This document shows positions 19,979 through 25,900 of a stretch of DNA of 64,000 nucleotides, one piece after another; within the stretch, counting starts at the first letter, position 1, and each line of letters begins with the position of its first letter. The notes beneath the pieces were generated by a model. That model saw nothing but the letters and a program-made list of their open reading frames with translations, made no database searches and had not been told where the DNA came from. Both the position numbers and the translations under genes were made by a program. The stretch spans positions 107,567 through 171,566 of IMG/VR virus record IMGVR_UViG_3300021963_004854; one strand, 5' to 3'. Origin of the DNA: a virus.

Positions 19979-20365
19979 ATGCTTACTCTTGCCGATATTA
20001 ATGCTGCCACCAATTCTAAAGATGGCAATATCTATTCCGACCTCTACAAGGATGTTTACGGCAGCCGTCCTCGGTATGCCCAGTTCGCATCCATCGAAGA
20101 GTTCGATGCGGATTTCGAACGCCTTGTGGCTCGTCTGGCCGAACAGATTGACGAAGATAAGATTCGTCAGGATGCAAATCTTGAAGCATTCAAGGTGCGC
20201 GTGGCAGAAACCATGCTTCTTTGTAACTGCGACAAGGTTCGCGCCGTAGAAATCATCGCCGATGCTGAAGGCGAACTTGAGAACCTTGAGTTCTACAGTT
20301 ACGAACGCCTTGAGTGGTACTTCGATATTAAATTCGGAGATATCAAGCAGTGGATGGCTGAATAA
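19979..20365 (+). CDS. Early hypothetical protein
   Basis: YSDLYKDVYG.RPR motif; follows a promoter cassette. Confidence 0.8.
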   Translation: MLTLADINAATNSKDGNIYSDLYKDVYGSRPRYAQFASIEEFDADFERLVARLAEQIDEDKIRQDANLEAFKVRVAETMLLCNCDKVRAVEIIADAEGELENLEFYSYERLEWYFDIKFGDIKQWMAE

Positions 20366-20371
20366 GTTTTT

Positions 20372-20446
20372 GCGCCTGTAGCTCAAAGGTAGAGCCAGCC
20401 CCTCATAAGGGCCAGGTTGCGGGTTCGAGTCCTGCCGGGCGCACCA
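20372..20446 (+). tRNA. tRNA-CAT (probably Ile2; Met possible)
   Basis: Loop CTCATAA; C4:G69 and C5:G68 as in TilS substrates; CCA. Confidence 0.85.
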
Positions 20447-20456
20447 AATATAATAC

Positions 20457-20515
20457 TTGACATTCTCTGTAAATCTGCTATTATGAGAATGTAGTAAGTG
20501 AGAAAGTGATTCGTT
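20457..20515 (+). promoter_or_regulatory. Early promoter cassette
   Basis: TTGACA 20457, AAATC variant, TATTAT 20479, TGATTCG 20507. Confidence 0.8.
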
Positions 20516-20716
20516 ATGGAAGTTTTTGCATTGTTAGGTGAATGGGATTACGAAGGTTCTGTGCTCCTTGGCGTGTATGCGTCTCAAGATGAAGCACGGA
20601 ATGCCCATGGTGTGTATACTCGTGATGGCGATCGGCTCATCGACCGCTACTATGTTGAGCGTCGGACGCTCGGTGCACCTGTAGATTCCGATGAGTATCG
20701 GTACTACATCGGTTAA
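20516..20716 (+). CDS. Early hypothetical protein
   Basis: Follows a promoter cassette; DYEG..LLGVY.S...A. Confidence 0.75.
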   Translation: MEVFALLGEWDYEGSVLLGVYASQDEARNAHGVYTRDGDRLIDRYYVERRTLGAPVDSDEYRYYIG

Positions 20717-20726
20717 AGTTTAACAT

Positions 20727-20802
20727 GGACGATTAGCTCAGTCGGTAGAGCGCGGGACTCTTAATCCTTAGGTCGTAGGTTCGAATCCTACATCGTCTAC
20801 CA
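20727..20802 (+). tRNA. tRNA-Lys(CTT)
   Basis: Cloverleaf, CCA. Confidence 0.93.
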
Positions 20803-20808
20803 TTTCAC

Positions 20809-20884
20809 GGACACTTAGCTCAGTAGGTAGAGCAACGGGCTTTTAACCTGTAGGTCCTGGGTTCGAACCCCAGAGTGTCCACCA
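20809..20884 (+). tRNA. tRNA-Lys(TTT)
   Basis: Cloverleaf, CCA. Confidence 0.95.
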
Positions 20885-20889
20885 TATTT

Positions 20890-20965
20890 GCGAGTGTAGC
20901 TCAGTTGGTAGAGCAAACGACCGATAATCGTTAGGTCACAGGTTCGAACCCTGTCACTCGCACCA
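20890..20965 (+). tRNA. tRNA-Ile(GAT), C33
   Basis: AACGA-CCGATAA-TCGTT, CCA. Confidence 0.9.
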
Positions 20966-20966
20966 T

Positions 20967-21038
20967 ACCAGCAGAACAAGTGTTCGACCGACTCTCATAA
21001 GGTTGGTTCGGGTGGAGCGTTACCACCTGCTGGTACCA
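20967..21038 (+). tRNA. Non-canonical tRNA-like RNA with CAT anticodon
   Basis: ACCAGCA/TGCTGGT acceptor + A + CCA; mini D-arm; 7-bp anticodon stem; T-loop AGCGTTA. Confidence 0.7.
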
Positions 21039-21039
21039 T

Positions 21040-21117
21040 GTCACGATGGCAGAGTGGTCCAATGCAACGGATTGCAAATCCGTAAAGCCGCCGGTTCGAA
21101 TCCGGCTCGTGACTCCA
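21040..21117 (+). tRNA. tRNA-Cys(GCA)
   Basis: Cloverleaf, U73, CCA. Confidence 0.93.
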
Positions 21118-21121
21118 CAAT

Positions 21122-21196
21122 GCGGGTGTAGCTCAGTGGTAGAGCATCTCGTTGCCAACGAGACGGTCGGCGGTTCGAATCCGCTCCCCCGCTCCA
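21122..21196 (+). tRNA. tRNA-Gly(GCC)
   Basis: GCGGG start, U73, CCA. Confidence 0.93.
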
Positions 21197-21199
21197 AAT

Positions 21200-21274
21200 G
21201 GCCCGGTCGTCTAGTGGCTAGGACACCGCCCTTTCAAGGCGGAGAAGCGGGATCGAAACCCGTTCGGGCTACCA
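21200..21274 (+). tRNA. tRNA-Glu(TTC)
   Basis: CCGCC-CTTTCAA-GGCGG, T-loop ATCGAAA, CCA. Confidence 0.92.
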
Positions 21275-21290
21275 TTTAGAAAGTGTTGTT

Positions 21291-21467
21291 ATGGTTAAAA
21301 TGATTTTTGCATTTTTGTTTATTTTTGCCCTTGTATTCTTTGGAATTCAAATTGTTCGAGATATGACAAAAAGTGAAAAATTAGGCTTGACAAAGTTGTT
21401 CGCCTATAGTATAGTGTGTTCTGTAGCAGCGATGGCCGTTGCCACAGCAATTGTTTTGATTTTCTAA
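21291..21467 (+). CDS. Small two-TM membrane protein (58 aa, not in ORF track)
   Basis: MVKMIFAFLFIFALVFFGIQ...AVATAIVLIF*; contains a TTGACA-17-TATAGT promoter (21387-21415) for the next gene. Confidence 0.65.
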   Translation: MVKMIFAFLFIFALVFFGIQIVRDMTKSEKLGLTKLFAYSIVCSVAAMAVATAIVLIF

Positions 21468-21481
21468 GGAATAAAGTTATT

Positions 21482-22279
21482 ATGAAAAGTGTTACCAAAG
21501 CTGTTCTTCTCGCTGGCCTTATGGCAACGACTGCCGCTTGTACCCGGATTGAAACAGGTGAAGTCGGCGTTCGTCGCTCGTTTGATAAGACCATCGAAAC
21601 TACCGAACTTCTGCCTGGTTCTGTAAACCAGACTATCTTCGGTGATGTTATGACCTTTCCCACAAAGGACGTTCAGGTCGATGTTACTGATTTGACGCCT
21701 CTGGCATCTGATAACTCGACTGTTGCTGACTTCGATATGGCAGTCATCTATTCGATTAATCCTGGTTCGGTTGCCGAACTCTACATCGAAAAGAACCGCG
21801 GTTTCCACGCTGATACCGAAGAAGGTGATACGCTGTTGATGTATAACTACATCCGCCAGCTTGGCCGTAATGCTGCATATAAGGTTGCTCGTCGTTACGA
21901 GTCCTTGAAGATGGCAGATAACCGCGCAGAGATGGAACAGATGATTCGCCAGGAAATCGTTAACAGTCTTGTTGCCGAAAAGCTAGATGGTGCAATTTCT
22001 GTTTCACAGGTTCTTGTTCGCCAGGTAAAGCCCGCTGCAAACATCGTAGCATCTGCTAACGCCCTTGTTCAAGCCCAGAATGCTGAAAAGCAGAAGCAGG
22101 TAGAAGTTCGCACCGCAAAGCTAGAAGCACAGCGAATTGCCGCTTTGAATGCCAACGCTGGTGCTACCAAGTATATGGAAGCAACCGCAATTGTTACGAT
22201 TGCAGAAGCAGTGAAAGACGGTAAGGTTAATACCATCGTCATTCCTTATGACTTCAAGGGTATTGTGAACGTTAAGTAA
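21482..22279 (+). CDS. SPFH/Band 7 lipoprotein
   Basis: Lipobox TTAAC, RIETGEVGVR, SPFH core, C-term coiled coil; AAGGA RBS. Confidence 0.88.
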   Translation: MKSVTKAVLLAGLMATTAACTRIETGEVGVRRSFDKTIETTELLPGSVNQTIFGDVMTFPTKDVQVDVTDLTPLASDNSTVADFDMAVIYSINPGSVAELYIEKNRGFHADTEEGDTLLMYNYIRQLGRNAAYKVARRYESLKMADNRAEMEQMIRQEIVNSLVAEKLDGAISVSQVLVRQVKPAANIVASANALVQAQNAEKQKQVEVRTAKLEAQRIAALNANAGATKYMEATAIVTIAEAVKDGKVNTIVIPYDFKGIVNVK

Positions 22280-22287
22280 TACTGATT

Positions 22288-22374
22288 GGAAGGTGGGCAG
22301 GACGGTAATGCAACGCACTGCTAATGCGTCTACTAGAAATGGTAGAGTGGGTTCGACTCCCACACCTTCCGCCA
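22288..22374 (+). tRNA. tRNA-Ser(GCT)
   Basis: Long variable arm, G73, CCA. Confidence 0.93.
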
Positions 22375-22393
22375 GTTATAAGTAATAGAATAT

Positions 22394-22471
22394 GGTGGAT
22401 GTAGCTCAGTTGGTTAGAGTGTCGGCTTGTGATGCCGAATGTCGCGGGTTCGAGTCCCGTCATTCACCCCA
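22394..22471 (+). tRNA. tRNA-His(GTG) with encoded G-1 and C73
   Basis: G-GTGGATG...CATTCAC-C-CCA. Confidence 0.95.
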
Positions 22472-22501
22472 TTAAAAAAATAAAAAAATTGAAAATAATA
22501 C

Positions 22502-22562
22502 TTGACATTTTCGACAAAGTAGTATATATATTAGTTCTGTTCTTTGACATTGTTAGAAGTTT
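22502..22562 (+). promoter_or_regulatory. Promoter plus boxA leader of the second RNA operon (repeat copy 2)
   Basis: A-tract, TTGACA 22502, TATATA, then the 28-bp repeat 22535-22562. Confidence 0.75.
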
Positions 22563-22599
22563 CTAAGTTTGTGTCGGGAGGGTTTCGGCCCTCCCACAT

Positions 22600-22760
22600 A
22601 ACTTATTTAATTACTCCTGCTGAGAGTAGCGCATATGGACGCATATGCTAGGCGGGCTGGGTGGGCCATCTACCAGTCCTGAAATAATCTCAGCAATGGC
22701 TTAGGAGAGGAAGCACCTCACTCCGAAATTCGCTCATGAGCAGGAGTAATTAAATGAGTT
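22600..22760 (+). ncRNA. Unknown structured RNA closed by a 22-bp stem
   Basis: AACTTATTTAATTACTCCTGCT pairs with AGCAGGAGTAATTAAATGAGTT; at least three inner hairpins. Confidence 0.6.
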
Positions 22761-22762
22761 TT

Positions 22763-22838
<76 letters not shown>

Positions 22839-22845
22839 TTCTATA

Positions 22846-22924
22846 GCTAAACTACTCGCATGCCGTATGGTGCATGGAGTCTGTCGAGAATGTTTAGCGT
22901 AAGCACCAAGACGTGAGGTGCTTA
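22846..22924 (+). ncRNA. Two-hairpin structured spacer
   Basis: GCTAAAC/GTTTAGC and TAAGCACC/GGTGCTTA. Confidence 0.4.
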
Positions 22925-22927
22925 TAT

Positions 22928-23002
22928 TCCCTAATGGCGCAGCGGTAGCGCAGTTGACTGTTAATCAATTGGTCGGTGGTTCGAATCCATCTTAGGGAGC
23001 CA
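22928..23002 (+). tRNA. tRNA-Asn(GTT)
   Basis: Cloverleaf, G73, CCA. Confidence 0.95.
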
Positions 23003-23008
23003 GTTTGA

Positions 23009-23083
23009 CGCAGGGTGGAGCAGAGGTAGCTCGTCTGGCTCATAACCAGAAGGTCGTCGGTTCAAGTCCGACTCCTGCAACCA
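23009..23083 (+). tRNA. Initiator tRNA-fMet(CAT)
   Basis: C1.A72 mismatch, GAGC/GCTC D-stem, CCA. Confidence 0.9.
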
Positions 23084-23084
23084 G

Positions 23085-23185
23085 TTTAGTATCTTTGATC
23101 TGGGACACGCATACTAAGTCGTGCATATAAACTAAGATGCCCTGCATTCAGGGCTACGTAGGGGAAGATCCTACAAGATACTAAA
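23085..23185 (+). ncRNA. Unknown multi-stem RNA
   Basis: TTTAGTATCTT/AAGATACTAAA closing stem; GCCCTG/CAGGGC and GTAGG/CCTAC hairpins. Confidence 0.5.
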
Positions 23186-23289
23186 ACACCGCCGCCCGTA
23201 TGGTGTATAACAATCCCGGGCCTAGTTTCTCGTAAATATTTTTCAAAAAAGTATTTACAAACACCACACAGTGGTGTATAAGTAGAGAA

Positions 23290-24142
23290 TAAGAAATGGC
23301 GGTATAGCGTCATTAGGGTAACCTTCGGCAACGAAGGCCAAAGCAGGGACTCCTACGTACCTGCGCCGGTAACGGTCCATCTATACAAGCCCAGGTAAGG
23401 GTTGTCTCGGCCATGGCCGTAAGCAATCCCCGTCAGTAGAATGGCGGTAGGCAGTAAGTGAGTGATATAAGTCCGAAAGGATATGAACAGAGCCAGTCGG
23501 TGAGTTCTAATAGACTGTGGTGGTCTAGCTGTATCGAACCAAACTCGCGAATGCTGAAAAACTAATGGGTAATCGCTGAGTCTGATCTAGCAAGAAAAGG
23601 CAAAGCGGTAGCACAATAGTTGAACCGATGAGGGGAGACTAGAAGTGCGGTTGATTAGTCCGCAAGACGAAAGACATGAGGAGTGTTGTATTTTGTATCT
23701 AACAAGATACGAAGCAACTGGAGCAGCACTTCTTGGTAGGTTCGCAAATTGCTTAATGGTAAAGCAACTGACTCTTAATCAGTAGATTCTAGGTTCAAAT
23801 CCTAGTTTGTAACAAAAAGCGAAAGTCTGCTCCAGTGCTATGTGAAAGGTGCTTAATACCTAACACGGAAGTGAATTGGGTTCACGGATTCCCGCAAGGA
23901 TGAAGTGATTGATCCGAGTGAAGACGTAGCGGTTTAGCGACTGCGAACAGCTTGCAAGGCTGGCGGAAGAACGAAGGTCGAATAGCATAGCATGATAAGT
24001 GATAAGCCACACTTCAAAAAAGGCAGCACTGAGGAATACTAGATGACCAGCGATGGCTCTAGTGGATAACGAGTTAACACTTCTCGCAAGGAAGTCGGTA
24101 CGGCTCAAAGGTCCTCAACTAAAAGCAGTAATCTCATGCTTT
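23290..24142 (+). ncRNA. GOLLD-like giant structured RNA (about 850 nt; ends approximate)
   Basis: No credible + strand ORF; own promoter TTTACA-17-TATAAG; many GCAA/GAAA/TTCG-capped hairpins; ACTGGAGCAG/CTGCTCCAGT long-range stem; 3' end AAAGCAGTAATCTCATGCTTT resembles GOLLD as I recall it; lies in a tRNA array. Confidence 0.7.
23742..23812 (+). tRNA. tRNA-Lys(CTT)-like domain embedded in the giant RNA (no CCA)
   Basis: GCTT-AATGGTA-AAGC, ACTGA-CTCTTAA-TCAGT, CTAGG-TTCAAAT-CCTAG; weak acceptor stem. Confidence 0.7.
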
Positions 24143-24145
24143 ACA

Positions 24146-24238
24146 AAGACTTATTAGATGAACACATCAAACCCACTGGGCGGCAGGTCGACTTAATGCT
24201 GCGATAGCGGTCCCTGGTGTGTTCTTCTAATAAGTTTT
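24146..24238 (+). ncRNA. Unknown RNA closed by a 24-bp stem
   Basis: AAGACTTATTAGATGAACACATCA pairs with TGGTGTGTTCTTCTAATAAGTTTT (one U-U mismatch). Confidence 0.55.
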
Positions 24239-24314
24239 GGGGAATTAGCTCAGATGGTAGAGCGCCAGCTTTGCAAGCTGGATGTCAACGGTTCGATCCC
24301 GTTATTCTCCACCA
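24239..24314 (+). tRNA. tRNA-Ala(TGC)
   Basis: G3:U70, CCA. Confidence 0.95.
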
Positions 24315-24319
24315 ATATA

Positions 24320-24449
24320 GACCACCTATGCTGAACCTCGTGGGGAACCACATAGAGAAAGTGGTAGTGTATGCTGTTGCAACAGTAATTGCTATCTAGG
24401 AAGATTGCAACGTCCGGAAGTAAGCAATCAAGGCACACTGCGGGTGGTC
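24320..24449 (+). ncRNA. Unknown multi-stem RNA, possible pseudoknot
   Basis: GACCACCT/GGGTGGTC closing stem; GTGG/CCAC, ATTGCT/AGCAAT, GTTGCAA/TTGCAAC. Confidence 0.5.
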
Positions 24450-24458
24450 ACTCTTTTT

Positions 24459-24541
24459 GCGCCTATGGTGGAATTGGTAGACACGCTGGTTTTAGGTACC
24501 AGTGCGAAAGCGTGGGGGTTCGAGTCCCTCTAGGCGTACCA
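24459..24541 (+). tRNA. tRNA-Leu(TAG)
   Basis: Type II cloverleaf, CCA. Confidence 0.95.
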
Positions 24542-24547
24542 TTATAT

Positions 24548-24623
24548 GCTCCTGTAGCTCAGTTGGTAGAGCATCGGTTTGAAGAACCGAGTGTCGGCGG
24601 TTCGAACCCGTCTGGGAGCACCA
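24548..24623 (+). tRNA. tRNA-Phe(GAA)
   Basis: TCGGT-TTGAAGA-ACCGA (G37), CCA. Confidence 0.93.
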
Positions 24624-24628
24624 GCTAT

Positions 24629-24713
24629 GGGTCGGTAAAGCCAGTGGCTCTGGCAGTCGGACTGTAAATCCGATCCGTTTTCGGGGGAGGATCGATACCT
24701 CACTGGCCCACCA
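24629..24713 (+). tRNA. tRNA-Tyr(GTA), atypical D- and T-arms
   Basis: TCGGA-CTGTAAA-TCCGA, V-arm CCG-TTTT-CGG, T-loop ATCGATA, CCA. Confidence 0.8.
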
Positions 24714-24714
24714 A

Positions 24715-24791
24715 GGTCTGGTAGCTCAGTTGGTTAGAGCGTCGGCCTGTCACGCCGAAGGTCGCGGGTTCAAGTCCCGTCCAGATCGCCA
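24715..24791 (+). tRNA. tRNA-Asp(GTC)
   Basis: Cloverleaf, G73, CCA. Confidence 0.95.
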
Positions 24792-24810
24792 TTACAATAA
24801 ATATATTCAT

Positions 24811-24883
24811 GCGACTGTTCTCCTGGGTGAGGACTCAGCCTTCCAAGCTGACGGAGAGGGTTCGAATCCCTTCGGTCGCTCCA
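24811..24883 (+). tRNA. tRNA-Gly(TCC), atypical D-arm
   Basis: TCAGC-CTTCCAA-GCTGA, U73, CCA. Confidence 0.85.
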
Positions 24884-24885
24884 AT

Positions 24886-24966
24886 GCCCCCGTATACCCT
24901 CTGGCTACGAACCAGTGGAAAGGTTAACTGAATTACATGCAGGTTTGAGTCCTGTCGGGGGCTCCA
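24886..24966 (+). tRNA. D-armless tRNA-Arg(ACG)-like RNA
   Basis: GCCCCCG/CGGGGGC acceptor + T + CCA; CTGG-CTACGAA-CCAG; T-arm GCAGG-TTTGAGT-CCTGT; no D hairpin. Confidence 0.65.
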
Positions 24967-24988
24967 TTCTCAACGAAGGAAAAATAAT

Positions 24989-25168
24989 ATGAATATCAAA
25001 ACTTACATGGCTCTAGCAGTTGCCGCTCTTACTGCCGCTTGCGCTCCAGCTTCGGAAAAACCATCGGTTGCAGAAGCCGCTGGTCCAGCCGCAGAAGAAG
25101 CACTTGCTACAGCAAATGCAACAGAAGCAGTAGAGCCTGCTCTTGGTGAAAATGAAAAGCCAAAGTAA
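24989..25168 (+). CDS. Small Ala/Glu-rich lipoprotein (59 aa, not in ORF track)
   Basis: MNIKTYMALAVAALTAAC lipobox; AAGGA RBS. Confidence 0.75.
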   Translation: MNIKTYMALAVAALTAACAPASEKPSVAEAAGPAAEEALATANATEAVEPALGENEKPK

Positions 25169-25178
25169 TTAAAAGTTT

Positions 25179-25255
<77 letters not shown>

Positions 25256-25261
25256 GTTTTT

Positions 25262-25336
25262 GTCGGTGTGTTGTAACGGTAACATGCAGGTCTCCAAAAC
25301 CTTGCGATCCGGGTTCGAATCCTGGCACCCTCGCCA
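25262..25336 (+). tRNA. tRNA-Trp(CCA), mismatched acceptor stem
   Basis: AGGT-CTCCAAA-ACCT, G73, CCA; pairs 2:71 and 3:70 mismatched. Confidence 0.8.
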
Positions 25337-25354
25337 TTTTATGACAGGTGACTT

Positions 25355-25795
25355 ATGTATGATAAAGCAAGAGAAGCAATTCTAAACTCTAGTGAAACGT
25401 CATCTGTTTATATCGGTGCCGATTCTATTAGGTTCAAGCGTAAAGACGGTCATTGGTATGCTAAGTATTCTACCGTCATTATTCTTCATATGGATTCTAA
25501 GCACGGTGCTAGAATTTTTCATAAAAACATTGAAATGCGTGACTTTGGTAACTTACGCCAACGTCTAATAGCGGAAGTTGGATTTGCTATCGAAGCCGCA
25601 ACGGCAATACTTGACGTTTTGGGTGAAAGAAAGTTGGAAATTCATCTTGACATTAACCCAAATCCAAAGTATAAGAGTAATGTAGCCGTGAAAGAAGCAC
25701 TCGGCTACGTTAAAGGAACTCTTGGTATTGATGCTAAGATCAAGCCAGAGTCCTTCGCTGCAACACATGCGGCGGACCACGTTGTGCGGGGTTAG
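25355..25795 (+). CDS. RNase H-like YkuK-family protein
   Basis: YIGADS, RL..EV, LEIHLDIN...KSN, IKP.SFAA...AD. Confidence 0.85.
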   Translation: MYDKAREAILNSSETSSVYIGADSIRFKRKDGHWYAKYSTVIILHMDSKHGARIFHKNIEMRDFGNLRQRLIAEVGFAIEAATAILDVLGERKLEIHLDINPNPKYKSNVAVKEALGYVKGTLGIDAKIKPESFAATHAADHVVRG

Positions 25796-25861
25796 CTCAG
25801 TTGGTAGAGCGTCTGCTTTACACGCAGAATGTCGGCGGTTCGAGCCCGTCACTCCGTACCA
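25786..25861 (+). tRNA. tRNA-Val(TAC)
   Basis: Cloverleaf, CCA; overlaps the last 10 nt of the upstream CDS. Confidence 0.95.
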
Positions 25862-25900
25862 TATATTATGATAGTATTAACAACAAAAGGTAAAACTTAT

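Follow-up and report, generated by a model that had tools for sequence, protein, structure and literature searches.

A tRNA-Lys look-alike with a disabled acceptor end in the linker of a phage GOLLD RNA, possibly a tethered mimic of the anticodon arm

Our comparison of related phage loci suggests that the tRNA-Lys(CUU)-like module embedded in a phage GOLLD RNA is a tethered, non-decoding mimic of the tRNA-Lys anticodon arm carried inside an RNA cage, a reading to which we assign a probability of about one half. The module lies in a stretch of 64,000 nucleotides (the window), which is the final 64 kb of an IMG/VR virus record of 171,566 bp that is rated complete. Positions 23289-24140 of this window almost certainly represent a GOLLD RNA of an aquatic T4-like phage, provided with its own sigma-70-type promoter and situated within a tRNA array. 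GOLLD RNAs are among the largest non-coding RNAs of bacteria and phages, and to our knowledge no function has been found for them since 2009.

The tRNA array around the GOLLD locus comprises 24 ARAGORN tRNA calls in the window, namely the embedded module and 23 free-standing tRNAs, and it is interspersed with genes for a T4-type RNase H, a homing-endonuclease-like protein, an SPFH protein and others. The phage RNase H shares at most 50% identity with the homologues from the Methylophilales phage Melnitz and from cyanophages (cyanomyoviruses). Judged by this likeness and by the gene content of the tRNA array, the source phage is an uncultured aquatic T4-like virus (171.6 kb) with a Gram-negative host. 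A blastn search against phage records returned no close cultured relative, the partial matches being of 69-73% only (DSS3_MAL1, Phosso and BL57). Domain searches found no PolyA_pol/CCA-adding domain in the phage, hence no gene for a CCA-adding enzyme, and no RNA_ligase domain either; the search with RNA_lig_T4_1 matched no control genome and was therefore uninformative. The array also holds weaker tRNA-like elements. In the gap between tRNA-Phe and tRNA-Asp, positions 24629-24709 reach 33.7 bits with the tRNA-Sec model, below its cut-off of 47, and at the corresponding place two related loci (L013 and L015) have a 94-nt 'tRNA-Ile(tat)' called by ARAGORN; this element may be an unusual or intron-bearing tRNA. 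Directly 3' of tRNA-Gly(tcc), positions 24886-24963 give a sub-threshold 24.2 bits with the tRNA model.

The GOLLD locus is composed of the following parts:

23254..23282, + strand: sigma-70-type promoter (-35 TTTACA at 23254-23259, 17-nt spacer, -10 TATAAG at 23277-23282)
23289..24140, + strand: whole GOLLD RNA, about 850 nt (Rfam 3' domain and covarying 5' domain)
23297..23677, + strand: GOLLD 5' domain, variable in the family but structured (alignment A2)
23678..23734, + strand: first hairpin of the Rfam 3'-domain model (cmscan), whose internal bulge gives the 5' strand of the linker-closing helix
23837..24140, + strand: rest of the conserved GOLLD 3' domain (cmscan, to RF02032 model position 416)

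The first-pass annotation of this DNA had named the GOLLD family and had asked for a search with the Rfam model. This search (Rfam cmscan) settled the matter: RF02032 matches positions 23678-24140 on the + strand with 187.3 bits (E 3.6e-51), the gathering score being 150, and the match takes in the whole model (positions 1-416 of 416). This model is restricted to the conserved 3' half of GOLLD RNAs. For the 5' half, the upstream 510 nt were aligned with related loci (alignment A2, 16-17 relatives), and in this alignment homology begins at about 23297. RNAalifold predicts 116 pairs on A2, a count that includes, besides the 5' domain, the helices with which the Rfam 3' domain begins, and 80 of these pairs are kept through changes on both sides, which argues that the 5' half is a conserved structured domain, as a GOLLD RNA should have. 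GOLLD RNAs measure about 800 nt or more, combine the 3' domain with a large structured 5' domain, and often lie in or beside the tRNA arrays of phages or prophages; the present RNA has about 850 nt and such a setting. Several GNRA tetraloop hairpins (GCAA, GAAA) are visible, and the longest overlapping open reading frames have 81-82 codons and lie on the minus strand. Thus the annotation's description of a tetraloop-rich, non-coding RNA of about 850 nt at 23290-24142, within a tRNA cluster and with its own promoter, agrees with our data, the predicted span being about 23289-24140. No Rfam match to a ribozyme, hammerhead or otherwise, was obtained for the 5' end of the RNA at E up to 0.1 in 20300-25900.

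The promoter places the predicted transcription start near 23289. Its -35 and -10 hexamers are kept in seven relatives (L102, L003, L088, L047, L021, L092 and L049) while the spacers diverge, and farther relatives have TTGACA/TATAAT-like boxes in the equivalent position. A generic promoter scan of the + strand called nothing at the GOLLD locus, because the -10 hexamer ends in G, and it was by its conservation alone that the promoter came to light. The terminator scan of the same strand gave no intrinsic terminator 3' of 24140.

Public metatranscriptomes were also consulted. Six of them contain 40-46% of the sampled words of the region, and four, one per study, were aligned; the sequences from these RNA libraries are Logan contigs, which can neither prove transcription nor show ends, strand or level. 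The contigs of the four studies cover 23307-24119, with no cover at 23116-23277 or 24142-24195, and the contig starts coincide at 23307 in three of the studies. Some contigs have zero differences to the window, among them one of X19 (23649-23757) that crosses the would-be RNase P site into the tRNA, and the whole module is spanned by contigs of X20 (23649-23844) and X19 (23739-23833), the X20 contig being a variant of the L102 type with the loop TTTAGGA. This cover is a weak hint of a stable RNA with the predicted ends and with the tRNA included, and it is compatible with partial processing too. As these are contigs only, we rejected the lack of cover in the flanks, the reduced depth over the tRNA and four 'skips' as evidence of ends or excision; at least the 62-nt skip in X17 resembles a divergent replacement cassette.

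The module sits in the unpaired variable linker of the GOLLD model, and the linker is organised as follows:

23717..23726, + strand: closing helix, 5' strand ACTGGAGCAG (MFE fold; compensatory variants in relatives)
23735..23741, + strand: leader GGTAGGT, immediately 5' of the tRNA and conserved in the tRNA-bearing clade
23742..23813, + strand: embedded tRNA-like module (ARAGORN tRNA-Lys(ctt); Rfam tRNA model 62.3 bits, cut-off 29)
23814..23826, + strand: linker 3' spacer AAAAAGCGAAAGT, with high conservation in relatives as well as in the Rfam consensus
23827..23836, + strand: closing helix, 3' strand CTGCTCCAGT (MFE fold; compensatory variants in relatives)
20727..20802, + strand, for comparison: canonical tRNA-Lys(CTT) of the same phage (ARAGORN), with full acceptor stem, A73, CCA and the loop CTCTTAA

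The cloverleaf of the module is complete: the D, anticodon and T arms are intact, the usual U8, GG and TTCRA elements are present, and the anticodon CTT (23774-23776) lies in the loop CTCTTAA (23772-23778). The acceptor stem deviates from the seven pairs of a decoding tRNA. It is AU-rich and starts with U1-A72, a C2.A71 mismatch and a G3.U70 wobble, which are followed by four good pairs. At its 3' end the sequence TTTGTAA is succeeded by a C as the discriminator (C73) and then by AAAAAG, and no CCA is encoded, whereas all 23 free-standing tRNAs of the window encode it. The strands ACTGGAGCAG and CTGCTCCAGT form a perfect 10-bp helix that encloses the linker, and the MFE fold of 23716-23840 consists of this outer helix and the cloverleaf (z -3.5). 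Compensatory variants of the closing helix occur in nine relatives (L002, L028, L049, L085, L118, L027, L029, L092 and L020), with ACCGAGCCAG/CTGGCTCGGT, ACTGCGGCAG/CTGCCGCAGT and ACTGGGACAG/CTGTCCCGGT as examples of compensated helices. The first-pass annotation had described a CCA-less tRNA-Lys(CTT) body at about 23742-23812 within a closing stem, and a normal tRNA-Lys(CTT) at 20727. Both tRNAs were recovered as described, and the stem proved to be real, 10 bp long and covarying, with its coordinates shifted by one base from those that the annotation implied. RNAalifold also proposes a long-range pairing of GUAGG in the leader (23736-23740) with CCUAC in the 5' domain (23352-23356), both strands of which are nearly invariant, so that its support by covariation is weak; this predicted pairing is possibly real, and if so it would link the 5' domain with the RNase P site.

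The anticodon loop of the module is identical in all seven positions to that of the canonical tRNA-Lys(CTT), and this holds in the window as well as in L013, L051 and L084. Since a canonical tRNA with the same loop is present, the module is redundant for decoding. The module resembles the canonical phage tRNA-Lys(CUU), such as the one at 20727-20802, in its cloverleaf fold and 7-nt anticodon loop, but differs from it in the absence of CCA, in C2.A71, in C73 instead of A73, in the AU-rich acceptor stem and in being embedded in a larger RNA. The module is not a recent copy of the canonical gene.

In order to place the window module among its kind, relatives were collected by motif scans of IMG/VR and of bacterial genomes, and Rfam confirmed 15 of the first 21 loci. 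Among 118 pattern matches in bacterial genomes a GOLLD 3' domain was present in only 2 (L193 and L293), the others being chance matches. A linker tRNA was found in 24 of the 126 loci retrieved by the 3'-terminal GOLLD motif, and these 24 tRNAs end 288-342 nt (mostly 317-325 nt) before the GOLLD 3' end, which is also the linker position in the window. The modules of the clade have in common the leader GGTAGG and the start of the body, TCGCAAA, and therefore they are one homologous lineage.

The stems of 34 distinct modules show where the lineage has been preserved and where it has not. Pairing amounts to 98.5% in the D stem, 98.2% in the anticodon stem and 100% in the T stem, with several pair types per position. 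At the acceptor end, pair 1:72 is formed in only 19 of the 34 modules and pair 2:71 in only 9 (15 have C.A there), so that a single module possesses all seven acceptor pairs. The canonical tRNAs at GOLLD loci provide the contrast: CCA is encoded in 202 of 235 of them and in 2 of 25 embedded modules (Fisher 1.4e-15), and seven acceptor pairs are present in 180 of 235 canonical tRNAs and in 0 of 25 embedded ones. By this pattern of substitutions selection acts on the L-shape of the module core but not on the aminoacyl end, and the window module, without CCA and with a frayed acceptor end, is typical of its clade. A few relatives retain CCA or a near-complete acceptor stem (L021, L083/L128, L293 and L032), L293 having a good acceptor stem plus CCA, which suggests that the lineage began as a real tRNA. 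Three clade members (L159, L165 and L067) keep the leader and the closing helix and have no tRNA; their linker of about 45 nt still contains TCGCAAAT, with which the tRNA body of relatives begins, and this suggests secondary loss.

The survey yielded some observations that stand apart from this comparison. The locus L002 is part of an isolate phage genome, Bacteriophage DSS3_MAL1 (MN602268.1, 7420-7883), where an unannotated GOLLD of 160.5 bits is flanked by tRNA-Met and a phage tmRNA; the annotated 'tRNA-Arg' of this record is the embedded module, with the loop CGTCTAA (G33) and without CCA. In L175 and L091, the 115 nt that follow the GGTAGG leader contain an apparent circularly permuted tRNA that ARAGORN does not call, in the order T arm, acceptor 3' strand, CCA, acceptor 5' strand, D arm. 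A tRNA with the amber-reading anticodon CTA was found at 668-743 of L010, a 283-kb phage contig, about 2 kb from a tRNA-less GOLLD.

The anticodons of the 34 distinct modules are CTT in 14 cases (all with the loop CTCTTAA), TCT in 5, TAG in 3 and twelve singletons; this sample is biased to the clade of the window, and in the less biased sample based on the 3' motif CTT accounts for about 6 of 19 distinct sequences. A canonical tRNA of the same anticodon is also present in 11 loci, the window included. The anticodons for Ser (tga, gct) and Leu (tag) are found on the same body with a short variable arm, and from their sequence the modules with Ser anticodons should not be chargeable with Ser. 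Two modules have G33. The unusual anticodon 'atg' (A34) occurs on two different bodies, those of L158 and L193, in the loops TTATGGA and TATGTAG; L193 is a 1.2-kb contig from a 'Rickettsiales' MAG bin and probably derives from a phage.

No part of the GOLLD RNA changes as fast as the anticodon loop or the entire cassette, yet most lineages keep CTCTTAA. Two pairs of loci illustrate this trend. The scaffolds of L003 and L006 are 97-99% identical and their tRNA bodies are identical in 67 of 67 positions, whereas the loops, CTCTTAA in L003 and ATTGAAG in L006, differ at 5 of 7 (Fisher 1e-7). In L006, the canonical tRNA-Ser(tga) shares its anticodon stem with the embedded module, although the two loops differ at two positions; local gene conversion may have contributed to the loop change there. 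The window and its nearest scaffold relative, L102, are 96-98% identical in the flanks and 71% identical in the tRNA body (p 1e-14), and the loop of L102 (TTTAGGA) contains an anticodon unlike that of the window; judged from the alignment, this difference looks like a cassette exchange. The longest complement to the own anticodon loop inside each GOLLD has a mean of 5.24 nt as compared to 5.35 nt for the loops of other GOLLDs, and no site within GOLLD covaries with the anticodon loop.

The solved structures of GOLLD RNAs indicate where such a module would be located. The GOLLD RNA of env-38 is a 14-mer cage by cryo-EM, with the disordered variable linker in the cage interior (Kretsch 2025, Nature, PMC12286853), and the Streptococcus agalactiae GOLLD is a 12-mer cage, also by cryo-EM (PMC12286853, PMC12990946). 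By homology, the window GOLLD should assemble into a 12- to 14-mer shell with the variable linker facing the lumen.

A conserved core, a disabled acceptor end, a loop redundant for decoding and a variable loop or cassette together lead us to infer that the module is tethered and acts through its shape and its anticodon arm. It would not be matured into a decoding tRNA and would stay covalently attached to the GOLLD RNA, and each cage would carry about a dozen copies of the tRNA-Lys anticodon arm. The tethered arms would imitate real tRNA for a factor that reads tRNA shape and the anticodon loop, most plausibly a tRNA-directed nuclease of the host or some other anticodon-binding protein, and would absorb or deflect it. 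Evolution would then re-aim the anticodon specificity by exchanging the 7-nt loop or the entire cassette. One would argue that the conservation of CTCTTAA in most lineages is equally expected of a decoding tRNA, and that the relatives with CCA or a near-complete stem speak against a tethered mimic, as release may be ancestral, or may still be used in some lineages. The lumenal position of the linker would also restrict the access of a protein to the arms unless the cage opens.

One extension of this proposal is that the GOLLD cages of tRNA-array phages are multivalent anticodon-arm baits or traps for host anticodon nucleases or other anticodon readers. The identity of the module loop with that of the phage tRNA-Lys(CTT) is the mimicry that a bait would need, and loop-only and cassette swaps on near-identical scaffolds may be a sign of an arms race, although most lineages retain one and the same loop. 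However, we know of no anticodon nuclease specific for tRNA-Lys(CUU), the natural substrate of PrrC is tRNA-Lys(UUU), and the linker faces the cage interior, so that a bait would be accessible only in a cage that opens or is porous. For these reasons we hold the bait reading as tentative and rather doubtful. If it is true, GOLLD would have a role in counter-defence. The first-pass annotation had likewise considered a decoy for PrrC-like nucleases or a docking handle; this idea is compatible with the disabled acceptor end, the tRNA-Lys(CUU) loop and the variable loop or cassette, but its link to PrrC is weak because of the substrate and amounts to a guess.

The best surviving alternative is that the module is a real tRNA-Lys(CUU) stored in an inert form in the cage, freed by RNase P and RNase Z, provided with CCA by the host enzyme and finally employed in translation. 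In principle, RNase Z and a host CCA-adding enzyme can mature a tRNA that has no encoded CCA, as is the case for some T4 tRNAs, and such a tRNA would show the complete cloverleaf of the module, with its U8, GG and TTCRA elements and its 62 bits in the search with the tRNA model. The conservation of CTCTTAA on 14 distinct bodies, the CCA encoded in 2 of 25 embedded modules and the good acceptor stem with CCA in L293 point in the same direction, and the idea of 'inhibited storage' has been put forward (PMC12990946). However, the absence of CCA and the mispaired positions 1:72 and 2:71 extend over the whole family while the neighbouring tRNAs are perfect, and the discriminator is C here as compared to A in the canonical tRNA-Lys. 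The canonical gene already supplies the anticodon, Ser and Leu anticodons reside on short-arm bodies, and the phage has no gene for a CCA-adding enzyme. Additionally, the free pseudo-tRNA was not seen in Mycobacterium aubagnense (PMC6582537). We thus consider storage unlikely.

Another possibility is that the tRNA shape only serves to bring in RNase P and RNase Z, by which the linker would be nicked or excised, the anticodon being irrelevant. The outcome would be two pieces, the 5' domain with the first hairpin and the 3' domain, joined by the closing helix, and a covarying 10-bp helix is indeed what would keep such halves together. The permuted tRNA with CCA in the linkers of L175 and L091 would also fit, although processing there would nick and not excise. 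This explanation is nevertheless improbable: it accounts neither for genuine-looking anticodon loops that match the phage's own tRNAs nor for the degradation of the top of the acceptor stem, which is the RNase P site, and the RNA-library contigs cross both junctions. A mere relic, that is a tRNA gene that landed in a tolerant linker and now decays as filler, would agree with the degraded acceptor end and lost CCA, with the loss of the tRNA in L159, L165 and L067, where only the TCGCAAAT remnant is left, and with the name pseudo tRNA given to the mycobacterial insert (Behra 2019, PMC6582537), but it is very improbable, as the three arms are 98-100% paired via many compensatory changes in 34 distinct sequences, conservation extends to the position, the GGTAGG leader and the 3' spacer, and the loop changes are concentrated far above the neutral expectation.

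The tethered anticodon-arm mimic can be compared with several known systems. The window RNA resembles the solved GOLLD cages of env-38 and S. agalactiae in the full 3'-domain match, the structured variable 5' domain, the length of about 850 nt, the phage tRNA array and the linker at the same model position. The tRNA-less GOLLDs of L004 and L008 score higher with the Rfam model (295-307 bits versus 187 for the window), a difference to which the 72-nt tRNA, as an insertion in the linker of the model, contributes.

An embedded tRNA in the GOLLD linker is an already published feature. It was noted that tRNAs sometimes occur in the linker (PMC12286853), a 2026 review describes a Mycolicibacterium GOLLD with tRNA-Phe in J13/15 and proposes the 'inhibited storage' mentioned above (PMC12990946), and Behra 2019 reported a 'pseudo tRNA gene' inside the GOLLD gene of M. 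aubagnense, for which a separate transcript was not detected (PMC6582537). In all these cases (Kretsch 2025, Mycolicibacterium, M. aubagnense) the tRNA-shaped insert occupies the same place as in the window. The M. aubagnense insert was judged a pseudo-tRNA that gives no free RNA, whereas the module of the window is of the Lys(CUU) type and belongs to an aquatic T4-like phage and not to a mycobacterial tRNA island. We did not find the disabled acceptor end, the predominance of CTT or the swaps of loops and cassettes stated in the literature that we searched on linker tRNAs.

The window member alone adds little, and it is the comparison that turns a loose remark on linker tRNAs into something specific and testable: one conserved lineage of look-alikes with disabled acceptor ends, mostly of the Lys(CUU) type, whose loops and cassettes change on a near-constant scaffold. 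The survey thereby directs experiments to the anticodon arm as the working part. The tRNA-like domain of tmRNA and the viral 3' tRNA-like structures are, like this module, tRNA-shaped domains that work within a larger RNA. These have a functional, chargeable acceptor end and no true anticodon arm. In the GOLLD module the situation is inverted: the anticodon arm is intact and the acceptor end is disabled.
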